The notes beneath the pieces are model-generated. The model had not been told where the DNA came from. It saw nothing but the letters and a program-made list of their open reading frames with translations, and searched no databases. This document shows, piece by piece, positions 25,131-42,948 of a stretch of DNA of 64,000 nt (position 1 is the first letter of the stretch; each line of letters opens with the position of its first letter). Origin of the DNA: Amphiscolops sp. MND2022 (taxonomy: Eukaryota). The position numbers and the translations under genes are program-made. The DNA lies in contig OZ076409.1 in NCBI GenBank assembly GCA_964187785.1, forward strand, positions 76,696,001-76,760,000. The letters run 5' to 3'.

Positions 25131-25938
25131 GATTCAGAATGTAACATGTGGACGCCTGAGTCGGCTGCTGCTCTATGGCTTTGAAGCTTCTGAGTTCAGT
25201 TTTTTTCTAAATTTGGTTCGAGATATCATTTTCAATAGCCAAACTCAATATAATTTAGAACCAAATTAATAACGTTTTTATGAAAGGGCGTTATCTAGAT
25301 CTTTCATGACTTGAAGTGTGTTATCTTGAGTTTGTCGAACGATAGTCATACATGAATCGAAGATTACTGTTTCTGAAAAAATGCATTTTGAACTTGAAGA
25401 AAATGTTCGTTGTTGTTTGAAGGCCGATAGTTGCGTCATAAAAATTTCAAAGAGGACATGTCCTACTTGAAATGCGACCTCATACCGTTCCGCCCCCTCC
25501 GGTCATTCAGAATGGTACTTTTTGAAGCCAAGGGCGAACTTATTGTCATTTTTGGACAACAGAGAAGCAACCTTTGTTCTGCTCGGCGAAAGACTTTGAT
25601 GTTTTGCAAAACAATTTTGCATTTGGTATTTACAATGTAAATTACTACTAAAGTCCGATGTTCGCTCAGATTTCTTTTAACTGACGTATTTTAATTATGA
25701 AAATACTCAAACACAAAATCCCAGATTACGTAGGCTATTCAAATTTGGACTGTCATTTGTATCTCATTTTAGATCAGGCGATGTCGGGTGCCTTTGCATT
25801 TCGCTGATGCCATTCAGATGCAGATATGCAACTGAAAAAGCTTTAGTTCATTCAGCAGATAAATTTTCCCCTGCACGGTCAGTCAATTCTTGAGACAAAA
25901 ACTGTAATCCTTGAATCTTTGAAAACAACAAAAATCAA

Positions 25939-27120
25939 ATGCATCAGTCGACCATGTCAGCAGTCCAATCATCTTTCTCTGTTTCTGAGTCTGAGAACTC
26001 ATCGTCTTTTCAAAGGCCCCAAGACCTCCCATCTTCGTCGAATGCCAGTCAGGAGCTTGCAATGGCAATGGCAAGTGCTGCAAGGATGCGGTCACCCAAC
26101 TCTCGCAAAGACTCGGCAGATATCAACAGGTGTTGCTGGGTCTGCTTCGCGGGCGAAGACGATCACGAGTCCAAAGAAGAAATATCCGGAGGCTGGTTGA
26201 AACCGTGCAAATGCCGCAATGCAACCAAATGGGTCCACCAACACTGTCTTCAGCGTTGGATTGATGAAAAACAAAGAGGAAACCCAAGTACTGTTGTTGC
26301 GTGTCCTCAATGCAACTATCCATATGTTATTCAGTTTCCTAAACAAACCAAATTCATCAAACTTCTGGAAATTTATGAACGATGGATCCAAAAGAGCTGT
26401 CCGCTTCTTGCTGCTGCATTCGCTGCCGGTGCAGTATACTGGACCTCAGTCAGTTACGGAGCTTTCACAATTATGCAGATTTTTGGATCCCGGGAGGGAT
26501 TAGAGCTCATTGAGAAGGGTGATCCTCTTTTTCTACTCATCGTCATGCCAGCAATTCCAATCTGTTTAGTTTTGGGAAAATTGGTCAAGTGGGAAGATTT
26601 GGTTCTGAAGCTTTGGAGAAAGCATTCCAAAAAAGTTTTGGACTTCTTTCAGAATGTCCCCGAAAGACGGTACTACGGTCAACGTGGCGTTAACCAACCC
26701 GCTCCCCAAGGTGCACGAGACCCCGTGGAAGCAGCCATCATCTCCGACCCAATAAGTGCAACCAGAGTTTTGTGTGGAGCCCTTGTTCTACCCACTATTT
26801 CTCTAATGTTCGGCAAAGTCCTCTTCTCTAAAGTGCAACCCAGTCTTCAGAGAACAATCCTCGGAGGAATCAGTTTTATCGTTTGCAAAGGTGTCCTCAA
26901 AATGTATTTCAGACAACAGCAGTTTCTACGAACCCTCAAGCGTGAAATCCAGAACTACAGCGAACCTCAGAGCTCAGCGGTGCAGACTTCGAATGTCCCA
27001 GCTGCTCCTCGCAACGAAGGAGTCCAGTTCGACATGCAGATGGGCGAGGATGACGCAACGGATGATGGCGACTCCCACACTGATAACCCCGAAGATGATG
27101 ATGCCTTCACCTCCGATTGA
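25939..27120 (+). CDS. MARCHF5: E3 ubiquitin-protein ligase MARCH5/MITOL (RING-CH domain plus transmembrane region), single exon
   Basis: CWVCFA...WLKPCKCRNATKWVHQHCLQRWIDEKQRGNPSTVVACPQC matches the MARCH5 RING-CH signature. Downstream DPLFLLI, DPISATRVLCGALVLPTI and LQRTILGGISF are conserved MARCH5 segments. AATAAA at ~27427. The exact start Met is uncertain. Confidence 0.95.
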   Translation: MHQSTMSAVQSSFSVSESENSSSFQRPQDLPSSSNASQELAMAMASAARMRSPNSRKDSADINRCCWVCFAGEDDHESKEEISGGWLKPCKCRNATKWVHQHCLQRWIDEKQRGNPSTVVACPQCNYPYVIQFPKQTKFIKLLEIYERWIQKSCPLLAAAFAAGAVYWTSVSYGAFTIMQIFGSREGLELIEKGDPLFLLIVMPAIPICLVLGKLVKWEDLVLKLWRKHSKKVLDFFQNVPERRYYGQRGVNQPAPQGARDPVEAAIISDPISATRVLCGALVLPTISLMFGKVLFSKVQPSLQRTILGGISFIVCKGVLKMYFRQQQFLRTLKREIQNYSEPQSSAVQTSNVPAAPRNEGVQFDMQMGEDDATDDGDSHTDNPEDDDAFTSD

Positions 27121-28639: not shown

Positions 28640-28703
28640 ACAAACCGGGACCGGCCCAAGTCGGCGCCCCGCTCAAGTTTCTCAAATATTTTTCTCAAAT
28701 ATG
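28640..28703 (-). repeat. 3' terminus of a HINE family A element, duplicated at the far side of the pPolB element
   Basis: 28644-28689 is identical to 42163-42208 (46 bp); 28691-28703 (tttctcaaatatg) repeats 42197-42209. Confidence 0.9.
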
Positions 28704-28854
28704 AGTAGTAGTCATAAAAGTAGGAACCCTGGGTCACTTTTGCTCCGTTTTCGTGAATGTGAACTAATTTATACGGGGGGGGATTACCGTGAAATTAAGA
28801 CTGTTGGTGTGGGGATATAACCTTGAAATTCAGACTGGTTTAAATGGGTGTGGC
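28704..28854 (+). repeat. Left terminal inverted repeat
   Basis: AGTAGTAGTCATAAAAGTAGGAACCCTGGG...TAAATGGGTGTGGC is the reverse complement of 42013-42164 except for G8 versus C10 and the terminal base. Confidence 0.95.
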
Positions 28855-29485
28855 TTTATTACTCGCGTCGTGGGTTTTTATGTGTACAGTGCCATTTGTT
28901 ATTTTTACCACTTGCGCTGGGGCGAATTCTCAAGTGGTTCTTGTTTAAAAATCGTAAAGGTTTGACTTGTGTGTCAATAAAGAGGGTGCGCCGCGTCTTC
29001 TCAATATTTTCAATATCAAAGAAGTTATTATCGAGTGACTTCAAGAGCTTGGTTAAATAATTGAGTCAAGATGTTAACTAACGGCGAGAAATTCGTTTCT
29101 GAGGTTAATTTGGAATATAATTTTGAGAAACACTCAATCCATGAAAGGAGGTTTCTGGGTTTCAAAGAGATCTGTAAGTCGCTTCCGCATAAAAAGATAA
29201 CGTAATTTTTCGCTTCGAGGGACTGCCTTCAGACTCTTGTGATGGTGAAAATAAAGTGTTAACTCAATCCACGCGGGGGACATAAATTCGAGAGTAATCG
29301 TGACATCGCCACCACTTTCGGTTAAAGTTAATAAAAGTAGATCCTTTTCATGAATCTCTACAGCTATTATAGTGAAGATTTTCTTCAAGTATAGTGAAAA
29401 CCACTTCAAGTTATGGAATTGCATCTGAATTCTTTGGTAAAATGTATAACAATTAATACTGTTTCCACCCTAGCACTCCCTTAAT

Positions 29486-30071
29486 ATGAGTTTTAGCAAA
29501 CATTTCCGTACTTCAAATACTATGATTTATGGAGTTGTGATTAAATGATACGGGAAGCTACACTCCAGGAGTTGATTGTTTCAATATATGTTCAAAAGCC
29601 AAGTGAAAACTTCAGGTTGTTATATCTAGTTATTACAAGAAGTGATATGTATACTTTTTCATTAACAACAAAATTACAGGTATCTTATTATATACCAACG
29701 AACAGACAGTGACAATTTCAAAGAATGCCTCGAACAATTTAAGAGTAACTTTTGGATTCCAGTGGTGGTTAATTGATGTTTCTGAATTGTTTCCAAACAA
29801 AACAGGTAATTTGAAAGAACGATTTTTTTAAAATCTAATATTTCATTAAATTTCAACATGTTTAAGGTGCAAAACTTAAATGGACTATGGTGGAAAATGT
29901 AACAACAGGACAACCAATAAACCCTCTTTATACAGCGTATTTGTTTCCGATAATGACGGTTTTGCTGACGAGTTGAAAGAATTGAGTGATCTAATTGCAA
30001 TAATCTGTCAGAATAGTTATGGACTTTGTTGTATGAATAATCAAAGATGGAATGTTTCAAATTTGAAATGA
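29486..30071 (+). pseudogene. Probable degenerate or complexly spliced paralogue of the 30363-30947 orphan gene
   Basis: MIREATLQELIVSIYVQKPSENFR|YLIIY (GT-AG intron 29616-29679, phase 2) aligns without gaps to LTRKTTLLEVKETIEATTIDSDIK|YYIIF. The C-terminal TTNKPSLYSV...SYGL aligns to TTVTPIQYYV...EYGI (10/39 identical, no gaps). I could not build one continuous frame. Confidence 0.45.
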
Positions 30072-30362
30072 ATACCCAAGAATACTAACAAAAGAAATTA
30101 TTCACAGTTTGTTATTGAAGGTTATAGAAATTGATGATATCTGAGAGAATATTACAAGTTGTGCTTGATTGAAAGAAAAGACTAACACTGAAATATGGCC
30201 AATAGAAAGGTGTTGTCTAACAAATATTCCAGTCATTGTAATTTTTCCCCTATACCATTTCAAGAAAGCCAACCAACTATCAGATTCACTTTATTGTTAC
30301 CTAGACCGTTCTTCTTCTTCGGAAAATCCGGTTTTATTTCAAAATCTTCGAAACGCTTCAAA

Positions 30363-30947
30363 ATGACGTTTACAAGCAACAACACAAAACTGTTTGGTCA
30401 ATACCTAGTTCAAGACGAGATGGTAATGGTGGAGGGAAATATCGATGGTGGTTTAACAAGGAAGACCACACTTTTGGAAGTAAAAGAAACTATAGAAGCA
30501 ACGACTATTGACTCAGATATCAAGTAAGTAAAAAACTCGATTTTTTAAACTGTTTCAAGTATCTCACCCAAGTCGCAATTTGTCTTTTACATATGTTGCT
30601 TCAGGTACTACATAATTTTTTTATATGGATCCTGCAGTTTTTATTCCCGATACTTTCAAGAAATTGCCAGAAAATCGAATAGTGGAGCCTTCGTTTGGAC
30701 AGTGACAATTCAAGAGCAACTCAAACGTTTTTTCTCATCCGCCCCTCCTGTTAAAGCAAAATTCGATTTTGTTGTCCCAAGATTGAACTCATCAACGACA
30801 GTAACCCCAATCCAATATTATGTGGATGGAGACAACTTACAAGGACACGAACAAGCTCTTTGGAGCCTATGTTTCCAGTTGGTAGAGAATGTAAAAAGTG
30901 AATATGGAATAATCATCTATGCCATGAAGCTTGCCCTAATTACTTGA
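30363..30947 (+). CDS. Two-exon orphan protein inside the pPolB element (an alternative upstream start lies at 30195)
   Basis: Donor AA|GTAAGT at 30524 and acceptor TTCAG| at 30604 (or CTGCAG| at 30637, same frame) join ORF 30195-30527 in frame to the stop-free stretch that runs into ORF 30702-30947. AATAAA at 31031. Confidence 0.65.
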
Positions 30948-31649
30948 ACTCCTTGAGCGTTTCCTAAAGCATGTGTTAGATGCTTCGAAAAAATGAATCA
31001 AAAGTCTATGCCTTTGATTGGTTTTAGTGTAATAAAGCTTTCGTTCCAATTCAATCGTGAAACAAAGTGTTGAAATTCAATAATTTATGATTTATAACTA
31101 ACGAAGGTATGTTGTCAATGACTTTGTTTATAACCTTCACGAGCAAATCATGAAACTAATCAATCAAGACTCAATATTTGAATTGAATATCGCTTCTATT
31201 TCGTTTTCTATTTCAAAAGAAGATTACTTTCCTGAGGTTAAAGATTATAAGAATAACTATGAACATGAGTAATGTCTTGAGACTCAAAGTTAAATCGAAA
31301 TTCACTACGTGTTTTGTATCTTTCTAAGGTCCAGAGAAAAACAACTTCTTGAGTTTAAGAAAAACGTCACCTTAACTGAAACTTGCTAGTCATCTAGACC
31401 TTTTCAAGAGGTCACTTTCTGTGGTCAAAAATAGCTTAACTATAACTACAACTAAAACTATACCTAAACAAATAACAAATAATTTATATATGACTTCCCT
31501 AGTATTTAATTTTCAGTAGAAACAACTTCTCTGAGGTCAAGAACAGAATTTTTCGGAAAAACTACAAGAAATTCACAGAATGACTTGAAACATGAATGAT
31601 TGTAAACTCCATGTGATTAAGATCGCAGCAGGGAAACATATTTAATATT

Positions 31650-31784
31650 GCGACCAATAGGAAGTGGCTATCCCAACTTTCCAACATTTTGACCAATACC
31701 TAATGAATTTTTCTGAAAAACAGACTGAAAACTTTTGTTGCAAATACAAGTTGTATATTCTACCCTTCCAGTCGCTCCTCCATT
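31650..31784 (+). promoter_or_regulatory. Putative Pol II promoter of the pPolB gene
   Basis: Two GACCAATA (CCAAT) boxes at 31654 and 31693, upstream of the ATG at 31785; motif evidence only. Confidence 0.3.
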
Positions 31785-34700
31785 ATGGACAGAAAATTTT
31801 GTTGTGAAACTTGCTTAAAATGTTACAAACACAAGCGAAATCTGAACAGACACGTACGCCAAAAACACAGAGATCATTCGAACGACCGTGAGTCAAATTC
31901 TCAAACCAACTCAGAAACAACAAGAGAGAACACAACTGACAGCGATGATTATGATTTTGAAGAGAATACCACACGAAATTACTTGAAAGTTATCTCTTTT
32001 AAACCAAAAAATACAATCCTCGATCCCATTGTTTTCCTAAATAACTTCTATCCGGACCTCTATTCATTAATTATCAAAAACTTACAAGAGGCAACTAGTT
32101 TGAAAATCCAATTATCCTTGTGTGTTTTATTATTCAAACCAACTACTGAATTGGAAATTGAGACTTGTTTCAACTCAAAAATGCAAGCTGTTTATTCAGA
32201 GGGTCTCTCGAGAGAAACATTCGACCAAATTAAAAATCACATTCTGAAACAGTTTGAAAACTTCTGTCAGCATGGCTCTGGATGGAGTGTTAAGAAGATT
32301 TTGAAATTGAGTATTAATTTCGCTCGAAACAAGCCCATCAGAGCTGGAAGCTTTATACCAACACCAACCAAGTTTTCAAACAATAACTTCTTGCTTAATA
32401 TCCGAACAATCAAGGCAAATAATTGTTTTGAGCTTTGTATTCTCGCAGCAAGACATTATCGCGATATAAAAAACAAGAAGAGTCGTCCTAGCACATATGA
32501 AAAGTTTCAAAAATTTGACTTATGTGACGCGGAGAATCCTGTGACAATTAAAGACATTGGCAGGATTGAAGGAGCTAATGATTTATCAATTAATGTTTTT
32601 GCTCTGGATAAGGAAATTTATCCTATTCGTATTTCCAACAAAAATGGATTTCCGGTGGATTTATTGCTACTTGAGGACGATGGTCGTTATCACTACTGTT
32701 TAATTACAAATTTCAATGGGTTTATGCGAAGAGAAACAAAGAAAAAGAATCAATTTTACTGTCGACGTTGTTTGACTGGAAGTTCAAGCTTGAGTCGCTT
32801 CAAGAATCATCAACTCATGTGTTCTGAACAACCTTGCCGAATAAAGATGAAACAAAATGGTAAGATGGCTTGGAAAAGTTTTGCAGCAAGAATGCGAGCC
32901 CCGTTTGTTATTTATGCAGACATAGAGGCCATCACACCAAAAATTACCTACACACCCAACCAATTACATGCACGAAAAGTTGAAAAACAAATACCTTGTG
33001 GCATTCATGCAATATGCTTAAATGAAAAAGGGAAACTGATAAAGCAATATTCCAGTCGGAGTGAGGGGTGTGTCACAGGTTTTTTGGACACGGTTCGAAA
33101 TTGGGCTAAAGAAATATATCGAGACAAGAGAAGATTTTCTTTTTACCAAAAGAAAACCAGTGATTTTACAAAGTTGAGAGATGCTGTTGATTGTTCTATT
33201 TGTGACGAAACACTCGGAAACGACAGGGTTTTTGAGCATAATCATGTTACCGGTAAACTGCGAGGCATAGCCCATAGTAAATGTAACATATCATGCAGAA
33301 CACCAAATTTCACTCCAGTTATTTTTCACAATGGCTCAAAGTATGATTTTAAGCAACTTCTGAGGTATTATCGACCTGGAGACGGTAACGAAAAACTAGA
33401 GTGCATTGCAAACAACTCTGAAGAATTCATCAGCTTTTCAATTTGTGTACCAACAGGGTCTTTCCAGAATGACCAAAATCAAAAGGTAATTACATTTGAA
33501 AAGCTCAAGTTTATTGATAGTTTCCGATTCCAAGCAAAGTCATTGAGCAGCCTTATTGAAACAATGAAGACTGATAATGTTCCCTTTACTACCTTCAAAG
33601 AAGGTTTCAGTCATTTCTCACAAGATCAGCAAAATCTAATTCTTCAGAAAGGAGTTTACCCTTATAGCTATATGGACTCATTTGACAAGTTCCAAGAAAC
33701 CGAACTTCCCCCCATCTGGATTGACACTTTATCCAATGAACCGATATCAGATCAAGACTACCAGCACGCTAAAAAGGTGTGGCAATGCCTAGGTATAAAA
33801 AATCTGGGGGAATATCATGATATTTATCTTCAAGTTGATGTTTACACCCTAGCCGACGTATTTGAGAACTTTCGACAACTGGCTTACAGCAATTTTGGTC
33901 TGGACCCAGCACACTTTCTTACAGCTCCTCATTTTGCATGGGAAGCAATGCTCAAAACAACAAAGGTTGAATTGGATTTACTATCAGAAAAAGACCATCT
34001 TGATATTGTGAAGAGAGGAATCAGGGGTGGAATATGTGGTGTTTTTCACAGTAGATTTTTCAAAGCGAATAATCCACAATGTGAAAATTATAACGCAACA
34101 GAGCCAAAAACCTGGATGATTTTATTAGACGCTAATAATCTCTATGGAGGAGTAATGCGTGAAAGTTTACCCATTGGCAACTTTTCAGAAACAACGGATT
34201 CTCTTGCAACTGTATTAGCAACTGCTGACGATGCTGAATTTGGATTTTTCGTTGTTGTTGATTTGGAATATCCAAAAGAATTACATGATCAACACAATGA
34301 TTATCCATTGGCACCAGAGCATTTAAAAATAACAAAAGAAATGCTCTCACCTTCACAAGCACGAGAAAAGTGTGAATCAGGGGAAACATTCAAGCTTTTG
34401 CAAACATTTAACACAAAGGAATATTACGTGTGCCACTACAGGATTTTGAAATTTTACGTTTCTCATGGGTTACAAGTGGTAAAAGTTCATAAAGTTATCA
34501 AATTTAGGCAGAGCAAATGGATGAAATGCTATATTGACATCAACACAGAAATTCGGCGTAAAGCAAAAACTGATTGTTTGAAAGATCTCGGAAAATTGTT
34601 AAACAATTCAGTTTTTGGGAAATCCATGGAAGATTTGACGAATCGTCAAAATATAAAGCTTTTCACAGATGACACCCATTGTGAAAAGTTTATTAGCAAA

Positions 34701-35585
34701 CCCAACTTCAAATCTTTTAAAATTTTTCAACCGAATCTATGTGCTTTGATTATGGGTAAGTCGATAGTAACCTGGAACAAACCTACATACATTGGAGCTA
34801 CAGTTTTGGATTTGTCCAAGTTGGTTATGTACAAATTTCTCTACCAAACAATAAAACCAACTTATGGGGACAAGGCGAAACTTCTCTACTCAGACACAGA
34901 CTCGCTTTTGTTAGCAATTGAGACGGAAAATTTGTACGAAGACTTTCAAAAAATCCAGGACGAGTTTGACTTTTCAGATTATCCAAACGATCACCCTTTG
35001 CACTGCGATAAAAACAAGAAAGTAGTACTGAAGATGAAAGACGAGATGAATAGTGGAATCATCAGCGAGTATGTCGGACTGAGAGCAAAAATGTACAGCA
35101 TCAAATCATCAGTAAAATCCAAAAAGTGTGCAAAAGGTGTTACGAAGATAGTACAGAAAGCTCTCCATCACGATCTATACAAAAGAGTCCTGTCTGAAAA
35201 GCTAACGATCAAAGAGAAAATGCGAACAATCAAGTCTCACAACTTGGAGCTTTTTGTTGAGGAATGCAACAAAATTGTTTTGAACAGTGCTGATAACAAG
35301 CGATACATTGAAGAAGATGTGAATGAAACCCTAGCTTTTGGGCATTATGAAATACCCCACTCATCGCCAAAAAGTATATTGCCAGAGATTTTAGTTGATC
35401 CAACGATATCAATGGACGAGAAGCACTTTGTTGTGTCATATAAAAGAAGCACAGAGAGCGAGAAAGAAGATATACCTGACCCAGGTTTCCTATCGTCTGA
35501 CACGCCCGACGACGAACAAGTGTACTCACCGCCAAAACGAGCGCGAAAAAACCCATTCATCATGTTTGAAGCTCAAGAAGCCTAA
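31785..35585 (+). CDS. pPolB: Protein-primed family B DNA polymerase polyprotein (Polinton/adintovirus type): C2H2 finger, terminal-protein-like region, OTU-like protease motifs, 3'-5' exonuclease with an inserted EndoVII/HNH-like module, polymerase
   Basis: Uninterrupted 1266 aa. ExoI YADIEA, ExoII FHNGSKYDF, FIDSF, KGVYPY, ExoIII YLQVDV, motif A LDANNLYG, motif B KLLNNSVFGK, motif C YSDTDS, KMY, AKGV. Also CETC-x12-H-x4-H, NNCF...HYCLI, CSIC...EHNHVTGKLRGIAHSKCN and C-terminal PPKRARK. AATAAA at 35733. Confidence 0.95.
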   Translation: MDRKFCCETCLKCYKHKRNLNRHVRQKHRDHSNDRESNSQTNSETTRENTTDSDDYDFEENTTRNYLKVISFKPKNTILDPIVFLNNFYPDLYSLIIKNLQEATSLKIQLSLCVLLFKPTTELEIETCFNSKMQAVYSEGLSRETFDQIKNHILKQFENFCQHGSGWSVKKILKLSINFARNKPIRAGSFIPTPTKFSNNNFLLNIRTIKANNCFELCILAARHYRDIKNKKSRPSTYEKFQKFDLCDAENPVTIKDIGRIEGANDLSINVFALDKEIYPIRISNKNGFPVDLLLLEDDGRYHYCLITNFNGFMRRETKKKNQFYCRRCLTGSSSLSRFKNHQLMCSEQPCRIKMKQNGKMAWKSFAARMRAPFVIYADIEAITPKITYTPNQLHARKVEKQIPCGIHAICLNEKGKLIKQYSSRSEGCVTGFLDTVRNWAKEIYRDKRRFSFYQKKTSDFTKLRDAVDCSICDETLGNDRVFEHNHVTGKLRGIAHSKCNISCRTPNFTPVIFHNGSKYDFKQLLRYYRPGDGNEKLECIANNSEEFISFSICVPTGSFQNDQNQKVITFEKLKFIDSFRFQAKSLSSLIETMKTDNVPFTTFKEGFSHFSQDQQNLILQKGVYPYSYMDSFDKFQETELPPIWIDTLSNEPISDQDYQHAKKVWQCLGIKNLGEYHDIYLQVDVYTLADVFENFRQLAYSNFGLDPAHFLTAPHFAWEAMLKTTKVELDLLSEKDHLDIVKRGIRGGICGVFHSRFFKANNPQCENYNATEPKTWMILLDANNLYGGVMRESLPIGNFSETTDSLATVLATADDAEFGFFVVVDLEYPKELHDQHNDYPLAPEHLKITKEMLSPSQAREKCESGETFKLLQTFNTKEYYVCHYRILKFYVSHGLQVVKVHKVIKFRQSKWMKCYIDINTEIRRKAKTDCLKDLGKLLNNSVFGKSMEDLTNRQNIKLFTDDTHCEKFISKPNFKSFKIFQPNLCALIMGKSIVTWNKPTYIGATVLDLSKLVMYKFLYQTIKPTYGDKAKLLYSDTDSLLLAIETENLYEDFQKIQDEFDFSDYPNDHPLHCDKNKKVVLKMKDEMNSGIISEYVGLRAKMYSIKSSVKSKKCAKGVTKIVQKALHHDLYKRVLSEKLTIKEKMRTIKSHNLELFVEECNKIVLNSADNKRYIEEDVNETLAFGHYEIPHSSPKSILPEILVDPTISMDEKHFVVSYKRSTESEKEDIPDPGFLSSDTPDDEQVYSPPKRARKNPFIMFEAQEA

Positions 35586-37230
35586 CTTTTTAATTTATTT
35601 TATGAAACTTAAACTTTAATGTCTGGCCAATTTAGTATTCCTTTATTACTTTTCAAAACCGAAAGACTACAAGAAGTAAATTTAACTTCCGATGCTAATT
35701 ACATTAAACTTCATTACTGTCTAAAATTGATGAATAAAAACTATTAAAACAAGCAACATAATATATTAAGTGGAATCCACACACACGCATACTTTTTCGA
35801 GACAATCTTTGTAATCAGTTCATAGGTTGTTGGTCTTGTCACTCGAAAATATTGTTGAAAACTCTAGAAATCAGGATTATCTTGAACATTTTTTTGAGCA
35901 TCTCTATCAACGCAATTTGAAAACTTTTTGAAACCTTCATCTTGTAAAACTACTGATAGTTTTTAAAATTTTATTGTATTGTAGTGTGAAAATTGAATGT
36001 TGCTGCAATTCAAAATGTATACGAGAATACCATCCAATTCTCAGATTTTCGACAGTCAAGAGTGGTGTCAATCAAAATTGGTGTGGAACTCGTTCAGGAA
36101 AACATTAGAAGGTTGTGACCGTGGTGGGTTTACAAAAAAATAGGAAAACTGTCGTTTGAAATTTTTTTCATCGAATCGTACTTATTTATTTTGGAAATGA
36201 CAACTGAGGGAAACAAGGTGAACCCATGATCTTATTGACAAATTGTTTTGCCAGTTAAGAGTCAATCTCAGAGATTGATGTATCCAGTTGAAAACAACAA
36301 CAACAAAAAGACCTAATGTTGCTAACGGATTATTACTACCAAAAAGATAACATACTTCCTTCACGTCTTAGAGTCAGTACCGAAAGAAATCACAAGTACA
36401 CTGCATAATGGATAATTTTTGAAAATCAAAATCAATGCTTCAAACATAAACATCAAAATAGAGCAATTTCAAAATAAATAGTTGAACGAGTGTTTACATT
36501 AGACAGGCATTTGAAAGGATTTCAGATGAACATCAGTTGGAAAGATGTGTATCCATTGAGTCCAATGTTTCCAAACCACTTTCAGGCGAGAAAATCTCTA
36601 ACTAGCAATGCTGTTTTTTTTCACTTCTTCTCTGAAATAAAACGTTGCAAATCAAAGTCAAGAAGGCTTATAGGTGAACTGCCAACTACTTGAAGTGCTG
36701 TTTCAACGTTACCTAACAATTAATAAGTCAAAACCTAATGACTATTTTGATACCTTTTACAACTACCAGTAATTATCAGATATTCAGTTCGTTCGAGGTA
36801 AATATTACCAGTTGAAGAAAAGACTGTTATCAGATTGATTAGAAAATGTAATTCAGAACGTTTTTCAAAATGTTTTTCAAACAAATTGAAACAATACCTG
36901 AGATAGAAAACTCGACATAATTCACTCCAACGCAATACAACAATTATTACAGCGAGATATTAGCATCACATCCTGGAGAGGGAGGGCTGAATTTTTCTAG
37001 TTGAAGTACAATTCAACAGAAACCAGACAGAGGACTACTCGTTCCTGTAGAGCGAAGGGTCCTTGAATTCTTTGTATAGTCCATCGAATTTCGAAACGAC
37101 AGTTGTACAATAAGTCCTAGAAATTTTGAAACGGAAACAAGAAGACTGTAAGAAGCTCCAAAAAAAGAGCTAAAGTATACAGGTCGTATTACTTTGAAAA
37201 TACGACCTTGGCTGTATTCTCGTTTATAAA

Positions 37231-37402
37231 GTGTCTACCGGAGTCTCTTTGGTTAATCTCAACCCAACAATGGAGAGTAGAATTTGCTCAATCTACCTGC
37301 TCCAAGAGAGGTTAACCAATACTAAGACCCCAGTAGACACTCGTACTGTGCAGGCTGGGTTAGGCCCGTCTTACCCAGTACATTGTGTCTACATCATGGG
37401 AG
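37231..37402 (+). repeat. Structured direct repeat, copy 1 (candidate ncRNA or cis-element)
   Basis: Core 37292-37392 is identical to 38146-38246 (101 bp) and has extensive internal complementarity. Confidence 0.85.
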
Positions 37403-37595
37403 TAGTGAAATTACCAAATAGCAAATGAGAGGAAGACAAAATTTGCACAAGGAATCGGAAGAAAAATCGACAAAAACGGAAGTATACTAAACAAAACCAT
37501 TTTATGCGACAAAGACAAACTATTCACCAAAATGTCACAAATAAACAATATTTTTTTCAATCGAACTTAGAAGATCCCTTAAAATATTATTCAAA

Positions 37596-37877
37596 ACATT
37601 TAAAAAACAAAAATGGTGGATATAATCAACAATTTTTCAAACCGACAGAACTTATCCCCTATGGAAGTACACTAAAGTAAGCCATTTTGAGGTAAAGACA
37701 TTTAAAAAGCAAAAATGCTGGATATAATCAACAATTTTTCAAACCGACAGAAGTTGTCCCCATGAAAGTACACTAAAGTAAGTCATTTTGAGAGTTAAAG
37801 ACAAATAAAACACTAAAATGCTGGACATAATCAACAATTTTTCAAACCGACAGAACTTATCCCCTATGGAAGTACAA
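37596..37877. repeat. Tandem array of ~2.7 copies of a 102-103-bp unit
   Basis: Units start at 37596, 37698 and 37801 and share ataatcaacaatttttcaaaccgacagaa. Confidence 0.9.
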
Positions 37878-38085
37878 CAGGACATATGATTTCAAAGAAA
37901 CAATTTTCAAAATCTCAAGCTCTCCACTACCAAAAAAAAAGACATTTCATGCCACGTAGAGAAATTGCATAATTTACATGTGATACCGCCATATAGTCTG
38001 TGTAGAGGTATTTAAACTGAAGAGGAAGAAAAGTAAAGATTTGAATCGAATCGAATCGAATCAGTACTTGTGCAGGAGATTTCGA

Positions 38086-38267
38086 GTGCCTACTGGAGTC
38101 TTTGATTAACCTCAACCCGTTTCTTGAAGAGTAGAGCACTAACAGTCTACCTGCTCCAAGAGAGGTTAACCAATACTAAGACCCCAGTAGACACTCGTAC
38201 TGTGCAGGCTGGGTTAGGCCCGTCTTACCCAGTACATTGTGTCTACTCTATGGGAGCTTTTTTTTTT
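38086..38267 (+). repeat. Structured direct repeat, copy 2, followed by a T10 run
   Basis: Matches copy 1; ends tgggagc followed by T10 (38258-38267). Confidence 0.85.
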
Positions 38268-38338
38268 AAAAAAAGGTGAACATTTCGATAAATTAATGAA
38301 ATACAAAGAACAAAACTTTAGCTCACTAAGCTGAAAGC

Positions 38339-41010
38339 AAAGACGAGTTAAAGAAATAATATAGCTCTAAAATGACAGAAATTTAGACCAAATTGTCAAT
38401 TGGACAGAGGTTACCCAAGGTATGTTGCACTGAAATGCTGCCATTTTTACTCAAAGACAAGTTAAAGAAATATTACAGCTCTAAAATGACGGAAATTTAG
38501 ACCAAATTTTCAATTGGACAGAGGTTACCCAAGGTATGTTGCACTGGAATGCTACCATTTTTACTCAAAGACAAGTTAAAGAAATATTAAAGCTCTAAAA
38601 TGACGGAAATTTAGACTAAATTTTCACATAGACAGAGGTTACCCAAGGTATGTTGCACTGGAATGCTGCCATTTTTACTCAAAGACAAGTTAAAGAAATA
38701 TTATAGCTCTAAAATGACGGAAATTTAGACCAAATTTTCAATTGGACAGAGGTTACCCAAGGTATGTTGCACTGGAATGCTGCCATTTTTACTCAAAGAC
38801 AAGTTAAAGAAATATTATAGCTCTAAAATGACGGAAATTTAGACCAAATTGTCAATTGGACAGAGGTTACCCAAGGTATGTTGCACTGGAATGCTGCCAT
38901 TTTTACTCAAAGACAAGTTAAAGAAATATTATAGCTCTAAAATGACGGAAATTTAGACCAAATTGTCAATTGGACAGAGGTTACCCAAGGTATGTTGCAC
39001 TGGAATGCTACCATTTTTACTCAAAGACAAGTTAAAGAAATATTATAGCTCTAAAATGACGGAAATTTAGACCAAATTTTCAATTGGACAGAGGTTACCC
39101 AAGGTATGTTGCACTGGAATGCTACCATTTTTACTCAAAGACAAGTTAAAGAAATATTAAAGCTCTGAAATGACGGAAATTTAGACCAAATTTTCAATTG
39201 GACAGAGGTTACCCAAGGTATGTTGCACTGGAATGCTGCCATTTTTATTCAAAGACAAGTTAAAGAAATATTATAGCTCTAAAATGACGGAAATTTAGAC
39301 CAAATTGTCAATTGGACAGAGGTTACCCAAGGTATGTTGCACTGGAATGCTACCATTTTTACTCAAAGACAAGTTAAAGAAATATTATAGCTCTAAAATG
39401 ACGGAAATTTAGACCAAATTTTCAATTGGACAGAGGTTACCCAAGGTATGTTGCACTGGAATGCTACCATTTTTACTCAAAGACAAGTTAAAGAAATATT
39501 AAAGCTCTGAAATGACGGAAATTTAGACCAAATTTTCAATTGGACAGAGGTTACCCAAGGTATGTTGCACTGGAATGCTACCATTTTTACTCAAAGACAA
39601 GTTAAAGAAATATTAAAGCTCTGAAATGACGGAAATTTAGACCAAATTTTCAATTGGACAGAGGTTACCCAAGGTATGTTGCACTGGAATGCTGCCATTT
39701 TTATTCAAAGACAAGTTAAAGAAATATTATAGCTCTAAAATGACGGAAATTTAGACCAAATTGTCAATTGGACAGAGGTTACCCAAGGTATGTTGCACTG
39801 GAATGCTGCCATTTTTATTCAAAGACAAGTTAAAGAAATATTATAGCTCTAAAATGACGGAAATTTAGACCAAATTGTCAATTGGACAGAGGTTACCCAA
39901 GGTATGTTGCACTGGAATGCTACCATTTTCACTCAAAGACAAGTTAAAGAAATATTATAGCTCTAAAATGACGGAAATTTAGACCAAATTTTCAATTGGA
40001 CAGAGGTTACCCAAGGTATGTTGCACTGGAATGCTGCCATTTTTACTCAAAGACAAGTTAAAGAAATATTATAGCTCTAAAATGACGGAAATTTAGACCA
40101 AATTTTCAATTGGACAGAGGTTACCCAAGGTATGTTGCACTGGAATGCTACCATTTTTACTCAAAGACAAGTTAAAGAAATATTAAAGCTCTGAAATGAC
40201 GGAAATTTAGACCAAATTTTCAATTGGACAGAGGTTACCCAAGGTATGTTGCACTGGAATGCTGCCATTTTTATTCAAAGACAAGTTAAAGAAATATTAT
40301 AGCTCTAAAATGACGGAAATTTAGACCAAATTGTCAATTGGACAGAGGTTACCCAAGGTATGTTGCACTGGAATGCTACCATTTTTACTCAAAGACAAGT
40401 TAAAGAAATATTATAGCTCTAAAATGACGGAAATTTAGACCAAATTTTCAATTGGACAGAGGTTACCCAAGGTATGTTGCACTGGAATGCTACCATTTTT
40501 ACTCAAAGACAAGTTAAAGAAATATTAAAGCTCTGAAATGACGGGAATTTAGACCAAATTTTCAATTGGACAGAGGTTACCCAAGGTATGTTGCACTGGA
40601 ATGCTGCCATTTTTACTCAAAGACAAGTTAAAGAAATATTATAGCTCTAAAATGACGGAAATTTAGACCAAATTTTCAATTGGACAGAGGTTACCCAAGG
40701 TATGTTGCAGTGGAATGCTACCATTTTTACTCAAAGACAAGTTAAAGAAATATTATAGCTCTAAAATGACGGAAATTTAGACCAAATTTTCACATAGACA
40801 GAGGTTACCCAAGGTATGTTGCACTGGAATGCTACCATTTTTACTCAAAGACAAGTTAAAGAAAAATTAAAGCTCTAAAATGACGGAAATTTAGACCAAA
40901 TTTTCACATAGACAGAGGTTACCCAAGGTATGTTGCACTGGAATGCTGCCATTTTTACTCAAAGACAAAGAAATTTTATAGCTCTATAAATATTATGGAA
41001 ATTTAGACTT
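38339..41010. repeat. Tandem array of 23 complete 114-bp units plus a degenerate partial unit
   Basis: aaagac starts recur at 38339, 38453, 38567, 38681, 38795 ... 40961 (exact 114-bp period). All six frames of the consensus unit contain stops. Confidence 0.97.
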
Positions 41011-42012
41011 TTAGACCAACGTAATTATCAATTAGACTTTCAGTTTTGCGTGTGTGTGGATACGAAATATATATTCTGATAAATGTAAGCAGGAGATATA
41101 GCTCTAAATGCAGTGTTTGCTCAAAGTTTTCTTTGACTTAACTGGAGAGTAGTAGCGTCTCATAGTTGTCAGGTTCATTGTATTCCTTGACCATTCTTTG
41201 ATGTTGAACAGTGGCGATGATCTGTAAACATGAAAGTCATTGAAAGCACTGGGAGCAAGGTTTTTCGTATTGGTTTTTTTGGTTACTCTAGTTAATAAAT
41301 CATGAATTTAGACAAAGCAAATAACCAACCTGTATTAGTTTTGCTTGAGTTGTTGCTGGTTTTTTTTTGGTTGCTGCTTCTTGTCCGTTTCGCTTTCTCA
41401 TTCATTGTACTGATTGTTGGAATTTTGAATTGGAATAGAAATCACAATAATCTTCGATGTTTGGCTATCTCTGAAACATTCAGAATCAGGAAATTCAGGA
41501 TTGAAAAGAATTGGTGTACTTAATTCGTTTCAAAATCACTTGAATTGTGAAGATCGGTCAATTCGCCAGAATGTCCAGTTTTTTTAAAATAATAAGTTAA
41601 ACACTTACCAAGCATTTGTTGTTTTTGCTCCAGGTAAAATGGCTGCTGGATTTTCTGGAGTTTTGATCGCTGTGATTGCTATTTGAAAGTATCTGAAAAA
41701 TTATCTGCACATAGGCGAAACAACTCTTGGGCTTTTGTGCAATGACATGAAAGCTGTAACAAATTAAATGAGAAAGAAGCTGTCGACTTGGTTTATCAAA
41801 AGATGAGACCTCACCCAGTTGCCTGACACACAATTCAAGATCACTTGAGAATTGCAAACAATAACCACATGAGATTTGTAAACAAAAACCACTTGAAATA
41901 TTTCCGCGGAGAGCAACTTTACAATCACCATATGCTCGCAGTACATAAAACTAATCAACCATAAAACCACCAGCGTCTAGACTTTCCATATTAAGCGCCG
42001 TAACTAATGAAT

Positions 42013-42164
42013 GCCACACCCATTTAAACCAGTCTGAATTTCAAGGTTATATCCCCACACCAACAGTCTTAATTTCACGGTAATCCCCCCCCCCGTATAA
42101 ATTAGTTCACATTCACGAAAACGGAGCAAAAGTGACCCAGGGTTCCTACTTTTATGACTACTAC
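42013..42164 (-). repeat. Right terminal inverted repeat
   Basis: GCCACACCCATTTA...CCTACTTTTATGACTACTAC; lacks the last T of the expected ...ACTACTACT end. Confidence 0.95.
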
Positions 42165-42948
42165 CGGGACCGGCCCAAGTCGGCGCCCCGCTCAAGTTTC
42201 TCAAATATGCAACGGACACAATTTTCAAACTTTTACCAATTTCTCTAGTGCTGAAAAATACCCCAAGGGGAATACGCATAAGACTCGGAAACCAGTTTTT
42301 CCCAATTGGAAACACAAAAAGTCCGTTTTTGAAAATGTTTTTTTCTCTCGATTTTTTTCCAGAAACGTCTCTTAGTCCCGAAAAAAGCTTTGCTGTCAAA
42401 ACGTTTTCTCAGGCCGAAATCAACTATGAAAGCGAGGGGGTACTCTTTGATCAAATGAAAGATTCGGAAAAAAAACGCACAGAGTCAAAAAACTGAAAAA
42501 ATATTTTCTACAATCATAAAGAAAAGTCATTAGTTCCACAGGATCAAAAAGTAACAAAGAGGTCACCCTCAAGACTCGGGGGCCGATTTACGGAAATCTC
42601 AAGAAGCCCAAAATTTCTCAAGAGAAATTTGTCGAAATTTTCAAGTTTTCGGTAAGTCGCGTGGTGCGGAAAACCTTGAGTGACCATCTATGCTAGCAAA
42701 ACGCTGATGTTTCGGCTGAAAATCGAGGGAGGAAGTTAAGGTTTGGAAAAATTCTGAAAAAATAGTACCCTTGCTTCTTAGACCGCGGGAAATCCGCGTT
42801 AACTAACAACTAGGCCAAGTGACTGACTGACTTTGCAAAATTGAAGACTTTTGGTAGAACTATTTCAGCTAGTTCAGGTGTATCGAAAAAAAACGCGAAA
42901 AGCCATGACGATAGCCACTCTTTTGTAAAGAAAAGCGCCAACTAAAAA
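42163..42948 (-). mobile_element. HINE family A copy that is the insertion target of the pPolB element
   Basis: accgggaccggcccaagtcggcgccccgctcaag ... aaaagcgccaactaaaaa; collinear with 19388-20335. Confidence 0.75.

Follow-up and report, generated by a model that had tools for sequence, protein, structure and literature searches.

We asked how a Polinton-like element that encodes its own protein-primed polymerase (pPolB), and neither an integrase nor a virion module, might spread through its host genome. The element occupies positions 28704..42164 of a 64,000-nt stretch of DNA from Amphiscolops sp. MND2022 (contig OZ076409.1, GCA_964187785.1), referred to here as the window. Published Polintons measure 13-25 kb, with terminal inverted repeats (TIRs) of 100-1500 bp and target duplications of 5-8 bp (10.1101/2023.08.22.554363), and the integrase is regarded as definitional for them (PMC5499653). 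Our element and its relatives share with Polintons (Mavericks) the pPolB, TIRs with AG...CT ends, a 6-bp target duplication, a size of 13-17 kb and the occurrence in multiple copies. Unlike Polintons, the family to which the window copy belongs (family A) has no integrase, ATPase, protease or capsids; it has small spliced genes of its own, and tandem arrays stand where the virion module would be. The evidence below suggests that the element is probably a replication-competent, helper-dependent satellite of Polintons.

Ends and coding content of the window copy

An initial reading made from the sequence alone (the sequence-only reading) described near-identical TIRs starting with (AGT)3. Near-identity was borne out, the arms (28705-28857 and 42010-42164) being 99-100% complementary in two blocks. 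The (AGT)3 start holds for the left TIR (28704..28857, plus strand), but the right TIR (42010..42162, minus strand) terminates in ACTACT at 42157-42162, and most sister copies begin with AGTAGT. Positions 42163-42164 are duplicated target and lie outside the right TIR.

The pPolB gene (31785..35585, plus strand) encodes 1266 aa free of stops and was assigned from the ORF list, Pfam, a motif scan and identity comparison. ORF and motif scan agree with the earlier description of an uninterrupted polymerase with all catalytic motifs: ExoI (DIE379), ExoII (FHNGSKYD514), ExoIII, PolA (LDANNLYG781), PolB (KLLNNSVFG937) and PolC (YSDTDS1035). Exonuclease and polymerase are both full, and no helicase family matched the window pPolB. 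An insert in the protein resembles EndoVII/HNH, at a sub-threshold Pfam E of 2e-4. As had also been stated, there is no other long ORF, none within the element exceeding 136 aa from stop to stop.

Searches of family A for integrase, ATPase, protease or capsid genes were negative, whether by tblastn (83 ORFs drawn from five full Polintons of this genome), by profiles of nine genes of these Polintons run against all six frames without regard to stops, by comparison with the proteins of the full Polinton F, or by Pfam applied to 66 frames of at least 40 aa. The integrase tests that were negative on family A detect the integrase in the full Polintons D and F. One 37-aa capsid-like match containing a stop was seen in the related family B (profile E 0.006), and none such in A or the third family, C. 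The reported absence of an integrase and virion module thus held in every copy examined (tblastn, profiles, Pfam), and no decayed integrase or capsid homology appeared in the six frames of the window element.

The window copy carries a private deletion of ~1.03 kb with its junction at 36870..36883. The missing segment is present in 15/15 complete sisters, where it holds no ORF >90 aa and gives no Pfam or profile match; the idea of an integrase or capsid gene lost with it was rejected on these grounds. Short open frames do occur in this segment of the sisters and close to the right TIR.

Sister insertions and resident full Polintons

Family A has 16 more TIR-paired copies in the genome, 97-99.6% identical to and colinear with the window copy. 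Recent activity is likewise supported. All TIR pairs found were colinear with the window copy, so it did not arise by simple deletion from a longer element bearing these TIRs. A 43-kb TIR pair on C8, considered as a full-length parent, was rejected, as foreign DNA interrupts it and its interior is without Polinton genes.

Exact 6-bp target duplications at precise AGTAGT ends flank 14 of 15 sister insertions, the footprint expected of an integrase; one insertion has no matching duplication. In 5/5 copies of families B and C such duplications also adjoin precise AGTAGT ends, and one older diverged member with both ends has an exact 6-bp duplication too. The window copy is the exception among its relatives, combining the 1.03-kb deletion with a 47-bp duplication (right copy 42163..42209; left copy, with a 13-14-nt tandem extra, within 28644..28703). 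Both copies of the duplication are host flank, the left one lying in a dispersed host repeat outside the element. A one-ended integration, with the right end joined normally and the left end joined by repair, would account for the 47 bp. The copy first read was therefore the aberrant one.

The main proposal of the sequence-only reading was a nuclear linear plasmid captured accidentally through DNA repair. This could draw on the 47-bp duplication and filler of the window copy, on the sister without duplication and on one locus with a dimer, but repair capture would not yield precise 6-bp duplications in 14/15 sisters and 5/5 B/C copies. These largely refute the accidental plasmid, which we consider hardly credible. 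The dimer locus is a head-to-tail dimer within a single 6-bp duplication and points to free linear molecules.

Families B and C share with A the layout and two small genes, and their pPolB proteins are 63-71% identical among the three families. In contrast, A/B/C pPolB is only 35-36% identical to the full-length pPolB of the full Polintons D1-D3 and F. In the pPolB tree, a check that the sequence-only reading had proposed, A, B and C form a separate clade apart from D and F; with nine rows from this genome only, a midpoint root and a long-branch warning, the tree speaks to the clade and not to its origin. Across pol and the small genes dS is saturated or >2.3 and dN is 0.11-0.86, and by this measure pol and the two small genes are under purifying selection in A, B and C. 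Protein-level conservation between the families is absent from the mid and right regions, including the 2.6 kb behind pol. Judged by the low pPolB identity to the sampled full Polintons, A/B/C are an old lineage and not a fresh deletion. Three older diverged members are likewise without helper genes.

These data bear on the idea that a full Polinton recently lost its interior and that the resulting element is now decaying. Full Polintons with AGTAGT ends are indeed abundant in the genome, the pPolB search scored the best 91 of 4030 candidates, and the pPolB frame is uninterrupted only in the window copy and 2/15 sisters, being broken in 13/15. However, among the full Polintons opened, none had a pPolB above 36% full-length identity, and the capsid-less layout and own genes recur in three dS-saturated families, making a recent deletion very improbable. 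Some of the breaks in sisters may be assembly errors. Beyond this genome, pPolB relatives were absent among viral contigs, and metagenomes gave 10 loci of 35-61% identity, every contig being <6.4 kb.

The full Polintons D1-D5 match rve, A32 ATPase and protease, and exact 6-bp duplications were found in D1, D2, D3 and D5. For F, some 50 copies of the integrase were counted at 98-100%, and its pPolB is 1411 aa long. Motifs of the B/C TIRs recur in those of F (77% over 74 nt) and not in D1-D4, whereas nothing past the terminal AGTAGT links the TIRs of family A to any full Polinton. Two further groups, G and H, are palindromic and polymerase-less with F-type ends, and retain only one of the small genes, the two-exon gene, encoded twice; 6-bp duplications were seen in 2/3. 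Among the full Polintons, F is the leading candidate as helper of B, C, G and H, while for family A no helper candidate stands out. One C-like element contains an F pol fragment (89%), and in two F copies a satellite repeat module replaces pol while separate 6-bp duplications are still seen, so F has evidently exchanged DNA with the satellite lineage. A bipartite Polinton composed of polymerase-only elements and polymerase-less F was considered and rejected: the polymerase-less form comprises two copies, whereas pol would fit into most F copies and is present in both that were opened.

Taken together, the element appears to lack functions for its own spread and co-occurs with D1-D5 and F as candidate helpers, as a satellite would. 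The 6-bp duplications and resident helpers favour the helper-dependent satellite that the sequence-only reading had offered as its alternative. By analogy with established pPolB biology, its own polymerase would amplify an excised or new linear copy from the AGTAGT ends. The retrovirus-like integrase of a full Polinton, as the presumed enzyme source, would then recognise the shared AGTAGT and insert the copy, leaving the 6-bp duplication. Such a self-replicating satellite would be integrated, and perhaps also packaged, in trans.

An autonomous element would do without helpers if its own integrase were split into many small exons, for instance in strongly diverged form in the 2.6 kb behind pol, or if the HNH/EndoVII domain of its pPolB did the inserting. 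Spliced genes do exist in the element, and the short frames noted above could be enlisted, but six frames gave no rve signal, and conservation across A, B and C is confined to pol and the two small genes, not the mid and right regions. G/H insert with 6-bp duplications in 2/3 yet have no pPolB and are too tightly filled to house an integrase of this sort. A weak match to the HNH-like insert also occurs in the pPolB of the integrase-bearing F. We regard autonomy as very improbable.

Repeat arrays, element length and known relatives

The region right of pol holds the structured repeat and homogeneous tandem array noted earlier. The former is a ~170-bp repeat in two copies (37230..37405, its core 99-100% identical in family C, and 38084..38256) that folds more stably than shuffles (z -2.9 plus strand, -5.2 minus strand) and has no Rfam match up to E 1. 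A 103-bp tandem unit (x 2.7, 37601..37876), expanded in B and C, lies between them, and the main array consists of 23.1 units of 114 bp with 97% matches (38338..40968; 6-26 units in sisters). The element had been described as free of the host repeats of the flanks, but dispersed repeats do occur in it: a 24-mer from the ~170-bp repeat occurs 172 times in the genome, excluding an element-specific repeat. It lay together with the 103-bp array at 16/16 further loci sampled, and is also found in the two polymerase-less F copies.

The families have similar sizes although their arrays differ (114, 103 and ~490 bp). Lengths are 12.7-17.4 kb in A (16 copies), 14.3 and 16.4 kb in B, 14.1-16.8 kb in C and 12.4-15.2 kb in G/H, with assembly gaps inside two of three G/H; the full Polintons measure 13.7-15.5 kb (D) and 16.2 kb (F). 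All satellite forms thus fall within 12-17 kb, beside helpers of 13.7-16.2 kb. In family A the non-repeat backbone is 10.55-10.64 kb in 15/15 sisters, and the 114-bp array varies inversely with the other repeats (rho -0.50, p 0.057, n 15; permutation p 0.011), a marginal correlation among related, not independent, copies, from 15/16 copies with one carrying a partial terminal duplication excluded. The 114-bp array is therefore a candidate length filler. In the third step of our model helper capsids would package the satellite, the arrays filling it to near helper length; we hold this packaging step to be nearly an even matter, leaning slightly against it.

The competing view keeps the first two steps and differs solely in packaging: a non-autonomous Polinton cross-mobilised only in the nucleus, with a borrowed integrase, arrays that are passive Helentron-like DNA, and lengths set by descent. 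In its favour, the 170-bp plus 103-bp module stands free in host DNA, accompanied by long arrays but by neither TIR nor pol, at 2/3 loci widened; the length correlation is marginal; and capsid-less Polintons are already on record. Table S1 of PMC4028283 gives Polinton-1N1_DR (15.5 kb), Polinton-2N1_DR (11.1 kb), Polinton-2/3_HM, Polinton-1_EI and Polinton-1_TV without MCP, penton, ATPase or protease; it has no column for pPolB or integrase. Polinton-1N1_DR is near full length. Against it, different arrays bring the families to one size, palindromic G/H with one small gene twice still reach 12-15 kb, and no short derivative occurs among the 41 TIR matches (40 of 51 candidates scored). A/B/C also differ from non-autonomous Polintons in their own pPolB clade, long purifying selection and lack of a parent in the genome. 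We consider purely nuclear mobilisation a serious but lesser possibility.

A packaged satellite would have parallels elsewhere. Stuffer-carrying helper-dependent adenoviral vectors, like the phage satellites P4 and PICIs, combine their own replicon or ends with a borrowed capsid and a length matched to it. With other hosts and other genes, these are an analogy and not a relationship. Transpovirons are linear dsDNA with TIRs and no virion genes that use helper particles and originated when the morphogenetic module was lost (PMC5499653), but they are about 7 kb, fuse pPolB to an SF1 helicase and have a giant-virus helper, whereas our elements measure 13-17 kb, have a full pPolB without helicase match, insert into chromosomes with 6-bp duplications and likely have a Polinton as helper. 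AHEV_PLV1 and Ca_PLV1 have pPolB and terminal repeats and are reported to have no detectable integrase; one of them was integrated, and integration in trans has been suggested (PMC11296320); unlike the present families they encode capsids and are single copies with no target-duplication series. Linear plasmids such as pGKL and those of mitochondria also combine pPolB and TIRs without a capsid (PMC11161782), but are cytoplasmic or mitochondrial and not integrase-inserted, while the present element has spliceosomal introns.

The polymerase-only state has been proposed as an intermediate between Polintons and capsid-less replicons; here it is seen in a living lineage with dated copies. One survey demanded five proteins within 20 kb and would miss such elements (10.1101/2023.08.22.554363). 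As an apparent borrower of integrase and capsid genes, the element would show that Polintons can carry parasites of their own, and because its coding content is so small, a satellite that nevertheless stays at helper length would offer a natural gauge of capsid capacity.

Small genes and a possible PIWI likeness

The two-exon gene (30363..30947, plus strand; exons 30363-30523 and 30605-30947, the start being predicted; ~168 aa) is common to A, B, C and the polymerase-less G/H. Its GT-AG intron (30524-30604) has the same position in B and C, and spliceosomal introns would imply transcription in the nucleus. Of the small spliced orphan genes claimed earlier, this one is real; a second gene, a 96-aa ORF, is intronless. 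Fifteen homologs of exon 2 were found, 6/15 of which (P0012-14, P0016-18) were excluded from alignment A3 as long multi-stretch matches.

The product weakly resembles the PIWI domain (PF02171): its predicted strand-helix order fits the C-terminal half, to which the weak profile and structure matches also point. Pfam Piwi hit 2/12 members of the family (best E 0.092, below the family cut-off), and a custom Argonaute profile reached E 1e-4 at best for a single comparison. The family-A protein was outscored by 11-21/200 shuffles. Built from 120 AGO-clade proteins and one host PIWI, this profile is ill suited to revealing descent from the PIWI clade. Decoy ORFs attained the scores of the best Argonautes, and hhalign gave a probability of about 1%. 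A structural search with a model of pLDDT 50 placed Argonautes in 8 of the top 50 rows (Z 2.5-3.1, rmsd 5.2-6.0, 95-106/114 residues aligned), while a model from a 3-sequence alignment matched longin folds, not PIWI, in a wide structural search. Pairwise BLAST, PDB sequence searches and Foldseek on both models returned no PIWI match, and a search for PIWI-clade proteins found none. Unlike Argonaute/PIWI proteins the product is only ~170 aa, without PAZ or MID, and by eye against host proteins the catalytic acidic residues are apparently missing. As a fourth step it might be a catalytically dead PIWI/Argonaute piece that blunts host small-RNA silencing, an idea to which we give slightly less than even odds. 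If the gene is PIWI-derived, a DNA-virus-like element would employ part of the host silencing machinery, for which the literature searched, without most subscription journals and Repbase, showed no precedent.

The full tiered system, with full Polintons as helpers, A/B/C as polymerase satellites, G/H without polymerase, a helper integrase, capsid-size filler and a dead anti-piRNA PIWI protein, is unlikely to be right in every part. Were it true, the limits on size would speak indirectly for the formation of Polinton virions, which according to PMC8097293 have not been observed so far.

A 63-aa frame (29880..30071, plus strand), not seen in B or C, has a weak likeness to a C-terminal PIWI stretch (Pfam Piwi E 0.073; Ago profile E 4.9e-4, 0/200 shuffles) and may be what is left of a second PIWI-like gene, or its last exon. 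For the 96-aa ORF (29134..29424, minus strand), which is 57-61% identical in B and C and under purifying selection, the Atlas gave no usable match, as for exon 2. Its homolog search gave 3 close proteins and ~30% homologs at about 80 other loci, and 2/2 loci inspected adjoin LTR-retrotransposon gag/protease ORFs.

The window copy and its family

The element extends from TIR to TIR over 28704-42162 of the window. Its TIRs of ~153 bp carry (AGT)3 at the left end and ACTACT at the right end, and its sole long ORF (31785-35585) encodes a protein-primed polymerase (pPolB) of 1266 aa. The sequence-only reading had described TIRs around an intact pPolB with no other long ORF, and this description was confirmed. 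The polymerase has the full set of exonuclease and polymerase motifs, together with an EndoVII/HNH-like insert. Tandem arrays of a 114-bp unit (23.1 copies) and a 103-bp unit (2.7 copies) accompany two copies of a ~170-bp repeat, which have more stable folds than shuffled sequences (z -2.9 and -5.2) and match no Rfam family. Short, possibly coding frames sharing a recurring motif lie at 41100-41700 (minus strand) and in a 1.03-kb segment of the sister copies; the same motif builds ~105-bp degenerate repeats in the related polymerase-bearing families B and C. At 25915-27120, 1.6 kb left of the insertion, the host DNA carries an ORF of 401 aa without introns that contains a RING-CH-type motif and is presumably MARCH5-like.

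With 40 of 51 candidates scored, a search of the 1.07-Gb genome with the TIR of this family (family A) returned 41 matches. These belong to the window copy, to 15 complete sisters (12.7-17.4 kb) and to a 43-kb pair in which foreign DNA interrupts the element. All family A copies found are colinear, and the layout is unchanged in three older copies of ~90-94% identity. The non-repeat backbone measures 10.55-10.64 kb in 15/15 sisters. The window copy has a backbone of 9.6 kb and lacks the 1.03-kb segment, in which the sisters have no ORF > 90 aa. Longer copies with the same TIRs that carry integrase and capsid genes, named beforehand as contrary to a lineage lacking them, were looked for among the TIR matches and not found.

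Full Polintons resident in the genome (D1-D5) have matches to integrase, A32 ATPase and protease, their capsid ORFs being assigned from size and position. In a tblastn search with 83 ORFs of D1-D5, pPolB alone matched family A. With profiles of nine D1-D5 genes, no six-frame hit in families A and C exceeded the reversed controls, proteins of a further full Polinton, family F, revealed no helper gene in family A either, and Pfam detected no viral family among 66 non-polymerase frames of at least 40 aa. The proposed lack of an integrase or virion module was borne out for family A by each of these searches. In family B the nine-gene profiles returned a single weak capsid-like stretch, a 37-aa match to the major capsid protein of Polintons, close to the right TIR (L071:9049-9177; E 0.006 versus 0.18 for the best reversed control), which contains a stop and is possibly a remnant or a chance match.

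Insertion and mobility

A target duplication of 5-8 bp is characteristic of retrovirus-like integrases. At 14/15 sister insertion events the ends are AGTAGT/ACTACT and the flanking duplication is exactly 6 bp; 10.1101/2023.08.22.554363 gives 5-8 bp as normal for Polintons. These precise duplications largely rule out accidental capture as the mechanism of the family, contrary to the earlier proposal of endogenisation by accident. The window copy itself lies within a host repeat, flanked by a 47-bp duplication and a short filler, and is best read as a one-ended integration event, completed by repair. A dimer locus (L043-L045, G000:C13:10098752-10127205) is arranged head-to-tail within a single 6-bp duplication, which suggests free linear molecules. 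Three ACT units are present at the dimer junction and at its outer right end, and the left end of the window copy, presumably joined by repair, has three AGT units; speculatively, free ends may be one repeat unit longer than integrase-joined ends at these 2 loci. Apart from the window copy, 2/15 sisters have an uninterrupted pPolB. The mostly broken sister frames count against activity; single-base breaks may be assembly errors.

We regard the element as a real, multi-copy, recently mobile non-autonomous Polinton with its own polymerase lineage, most probably using the integrase of a helper, and hold this view with good though not full confidence. By analogy, it would resemble Polintons in replication and insertion, and transpovirons and phage satellites in dependence. 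It departs from Polinton membership in that the integrase, which PMC5499653 includes in the Polinton definition, is absent. Capsid-less and non-autonomous Polintons are tabulated in PMC4028283 Table S1, where pPolB or integrase status is not given, and integrase-less Polinton-like viruses with capsids are recorded in PMC11296320. The literature searched contained no polymerase-only, integrase-borrowing Polinton lineage. Capsid-less Polintons were already known, and it is the polymerase-keeping, integrase-borrowing state that would be new among the non-autonomous ones.

Related families and candidate helpers

The plan of family A recurs in families B and C at 14.1-16.8 kb, and 5/5 opened copies (2 of B, 3 of C) have 6-bp duplications. 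Their pPolBs are 63-71% identical to that of A and form one clade with it, to which the full-length pPolBs of D1-D3 and F show 35-36% identity. All three families have an ORF of 96 aa as well as a two-exon gene whose intron position is identical. Among them synonymous sites are saturated, while dN is 0.11-0.86. Helper genes are likewise absent from three further diverged, broken members. The shared absence of these genes and the saturation argue, at the level of sequence, that the lineage is old and was capsid-less before A, B and C diverged. Distant homologs of the 96-aa ORF (L147:8001-8267 and L149:7001-7264) adjoin LTR retrotransposon gag and protease ORFs, and this ORF family would appear to be an accessory gene common to retroelement and satellite.

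The genome is very rich in Polintons, with at least 91 pPolB and 137 integrase matches that fall into several families and include many open frames. Family F has ~50 integrase copies of 98-100% identity and a pPolB of 1411 aa. TIR motifs of B and C resemble those of F (77% over 74 nt) and have none in common with D1-D4; family A TIRs carry subterminal repeats as in B and C and have AGTAGT alone in common with any helper. Family F is a likely helper candidate, chiefly for B and C, as judged from its sequence. In two F copies, at G000:C1:4424682-4438785 (L126, L127, L130) and C2:99462707-99477086 (L106, L128, L129), the satellite module of ~170-bp repeat and 103-bp unit replaces pPolB. They are 99.6% identical and flanked by different 6-bp duplications, so this form moved in trans. 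One C-like element contains an F polymerase fragment (89% identity), which together with these F copies points to DNA exchange in both directions.

A search with an exon 2 homolog of the two-exon gene gave 129 matches. The three opened, at G000:C4:12242298-12257533 (L143-L144), G000:C5:36469767-36482182 (L145-L146) and G000:C7:40270425-40283229 (L150-L151), are near-palindromes of 12-15 kb (G/H elements) with the gene in both arms and an assembly gap at the centre in 2/3. Their ends are F-type (87-91% over ~480 nt), their arrays consist of ~490-bp units related to an F-internal repeat, and pPolB is absent, one of them retaining a short A/B-type polymerase remnant. A clear 6-bp duplication flanks 2/3, and such elements have many copies in the genome. 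Polymerase-only, polymerase-less F and palindromic elements would represent three forms of trans complementation within one genome.

Element length and the two-exon gene

Shortening is the usual fate of non-autonomous DNA transposons. Here, elements of all three kinds (polymerase-only, polymerase-less and full) measure 12.4-17.4 kb, a pattern to be read with the relatedness of the copies and the partly dispersed nature of the filler in mind (one 24-mer has 172 exact genome matches). Coding content varies tenfold across these forms, and the filler unit differs (114, 103 or ~490 bp). In family A, two repeat components are inversely related (rho -0.50, p 0.057, permutation p 0.011; 15/16 copies). 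A capsid-size constraint would account for the shared length, and we consider packaging conceivable at slightly less than even chances. The 170-bp and 103-bp module also stands alone at L122-L125 (G000:C1:8.71 Mb, 54.53 Mb) and ~100 further loci, with arrays of at least 6 kb, inverted repeats in subterminal position and a small hairpin at the terminus, and may be a Helentron/DINE-type non-autonomous element.

The two-exon gene is the sole gene retained in every satellite tier, and Pfam Piwi is the sole family recurring among its weak matches. An Argonaute profile matches the family C protein (E 1.2e-4, 0/200 shuffles) and, in the same C-terminal stretch, two database homologs and a second family A frame; with this profile, the two-exon proteins of families A, B, G and H do not stand out from shuffled sequences. 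When a model of pLDDT 50 was compared with 48,161 chains, 8 of the 50 best matches were Argonautes, at a Z of only 2.5-3.1, with 95-106 of 114 residues aligned to the C-terminal PIWI half. Foldseek, hhalign, PDB sequence searches and a second model gave no PIWI support. We treat a PIWI origin of this gene as a tentative lead, not a finding, and somewhat more doubtful than its alternative. The host genome has Argonaute/PIWI genes of its own.
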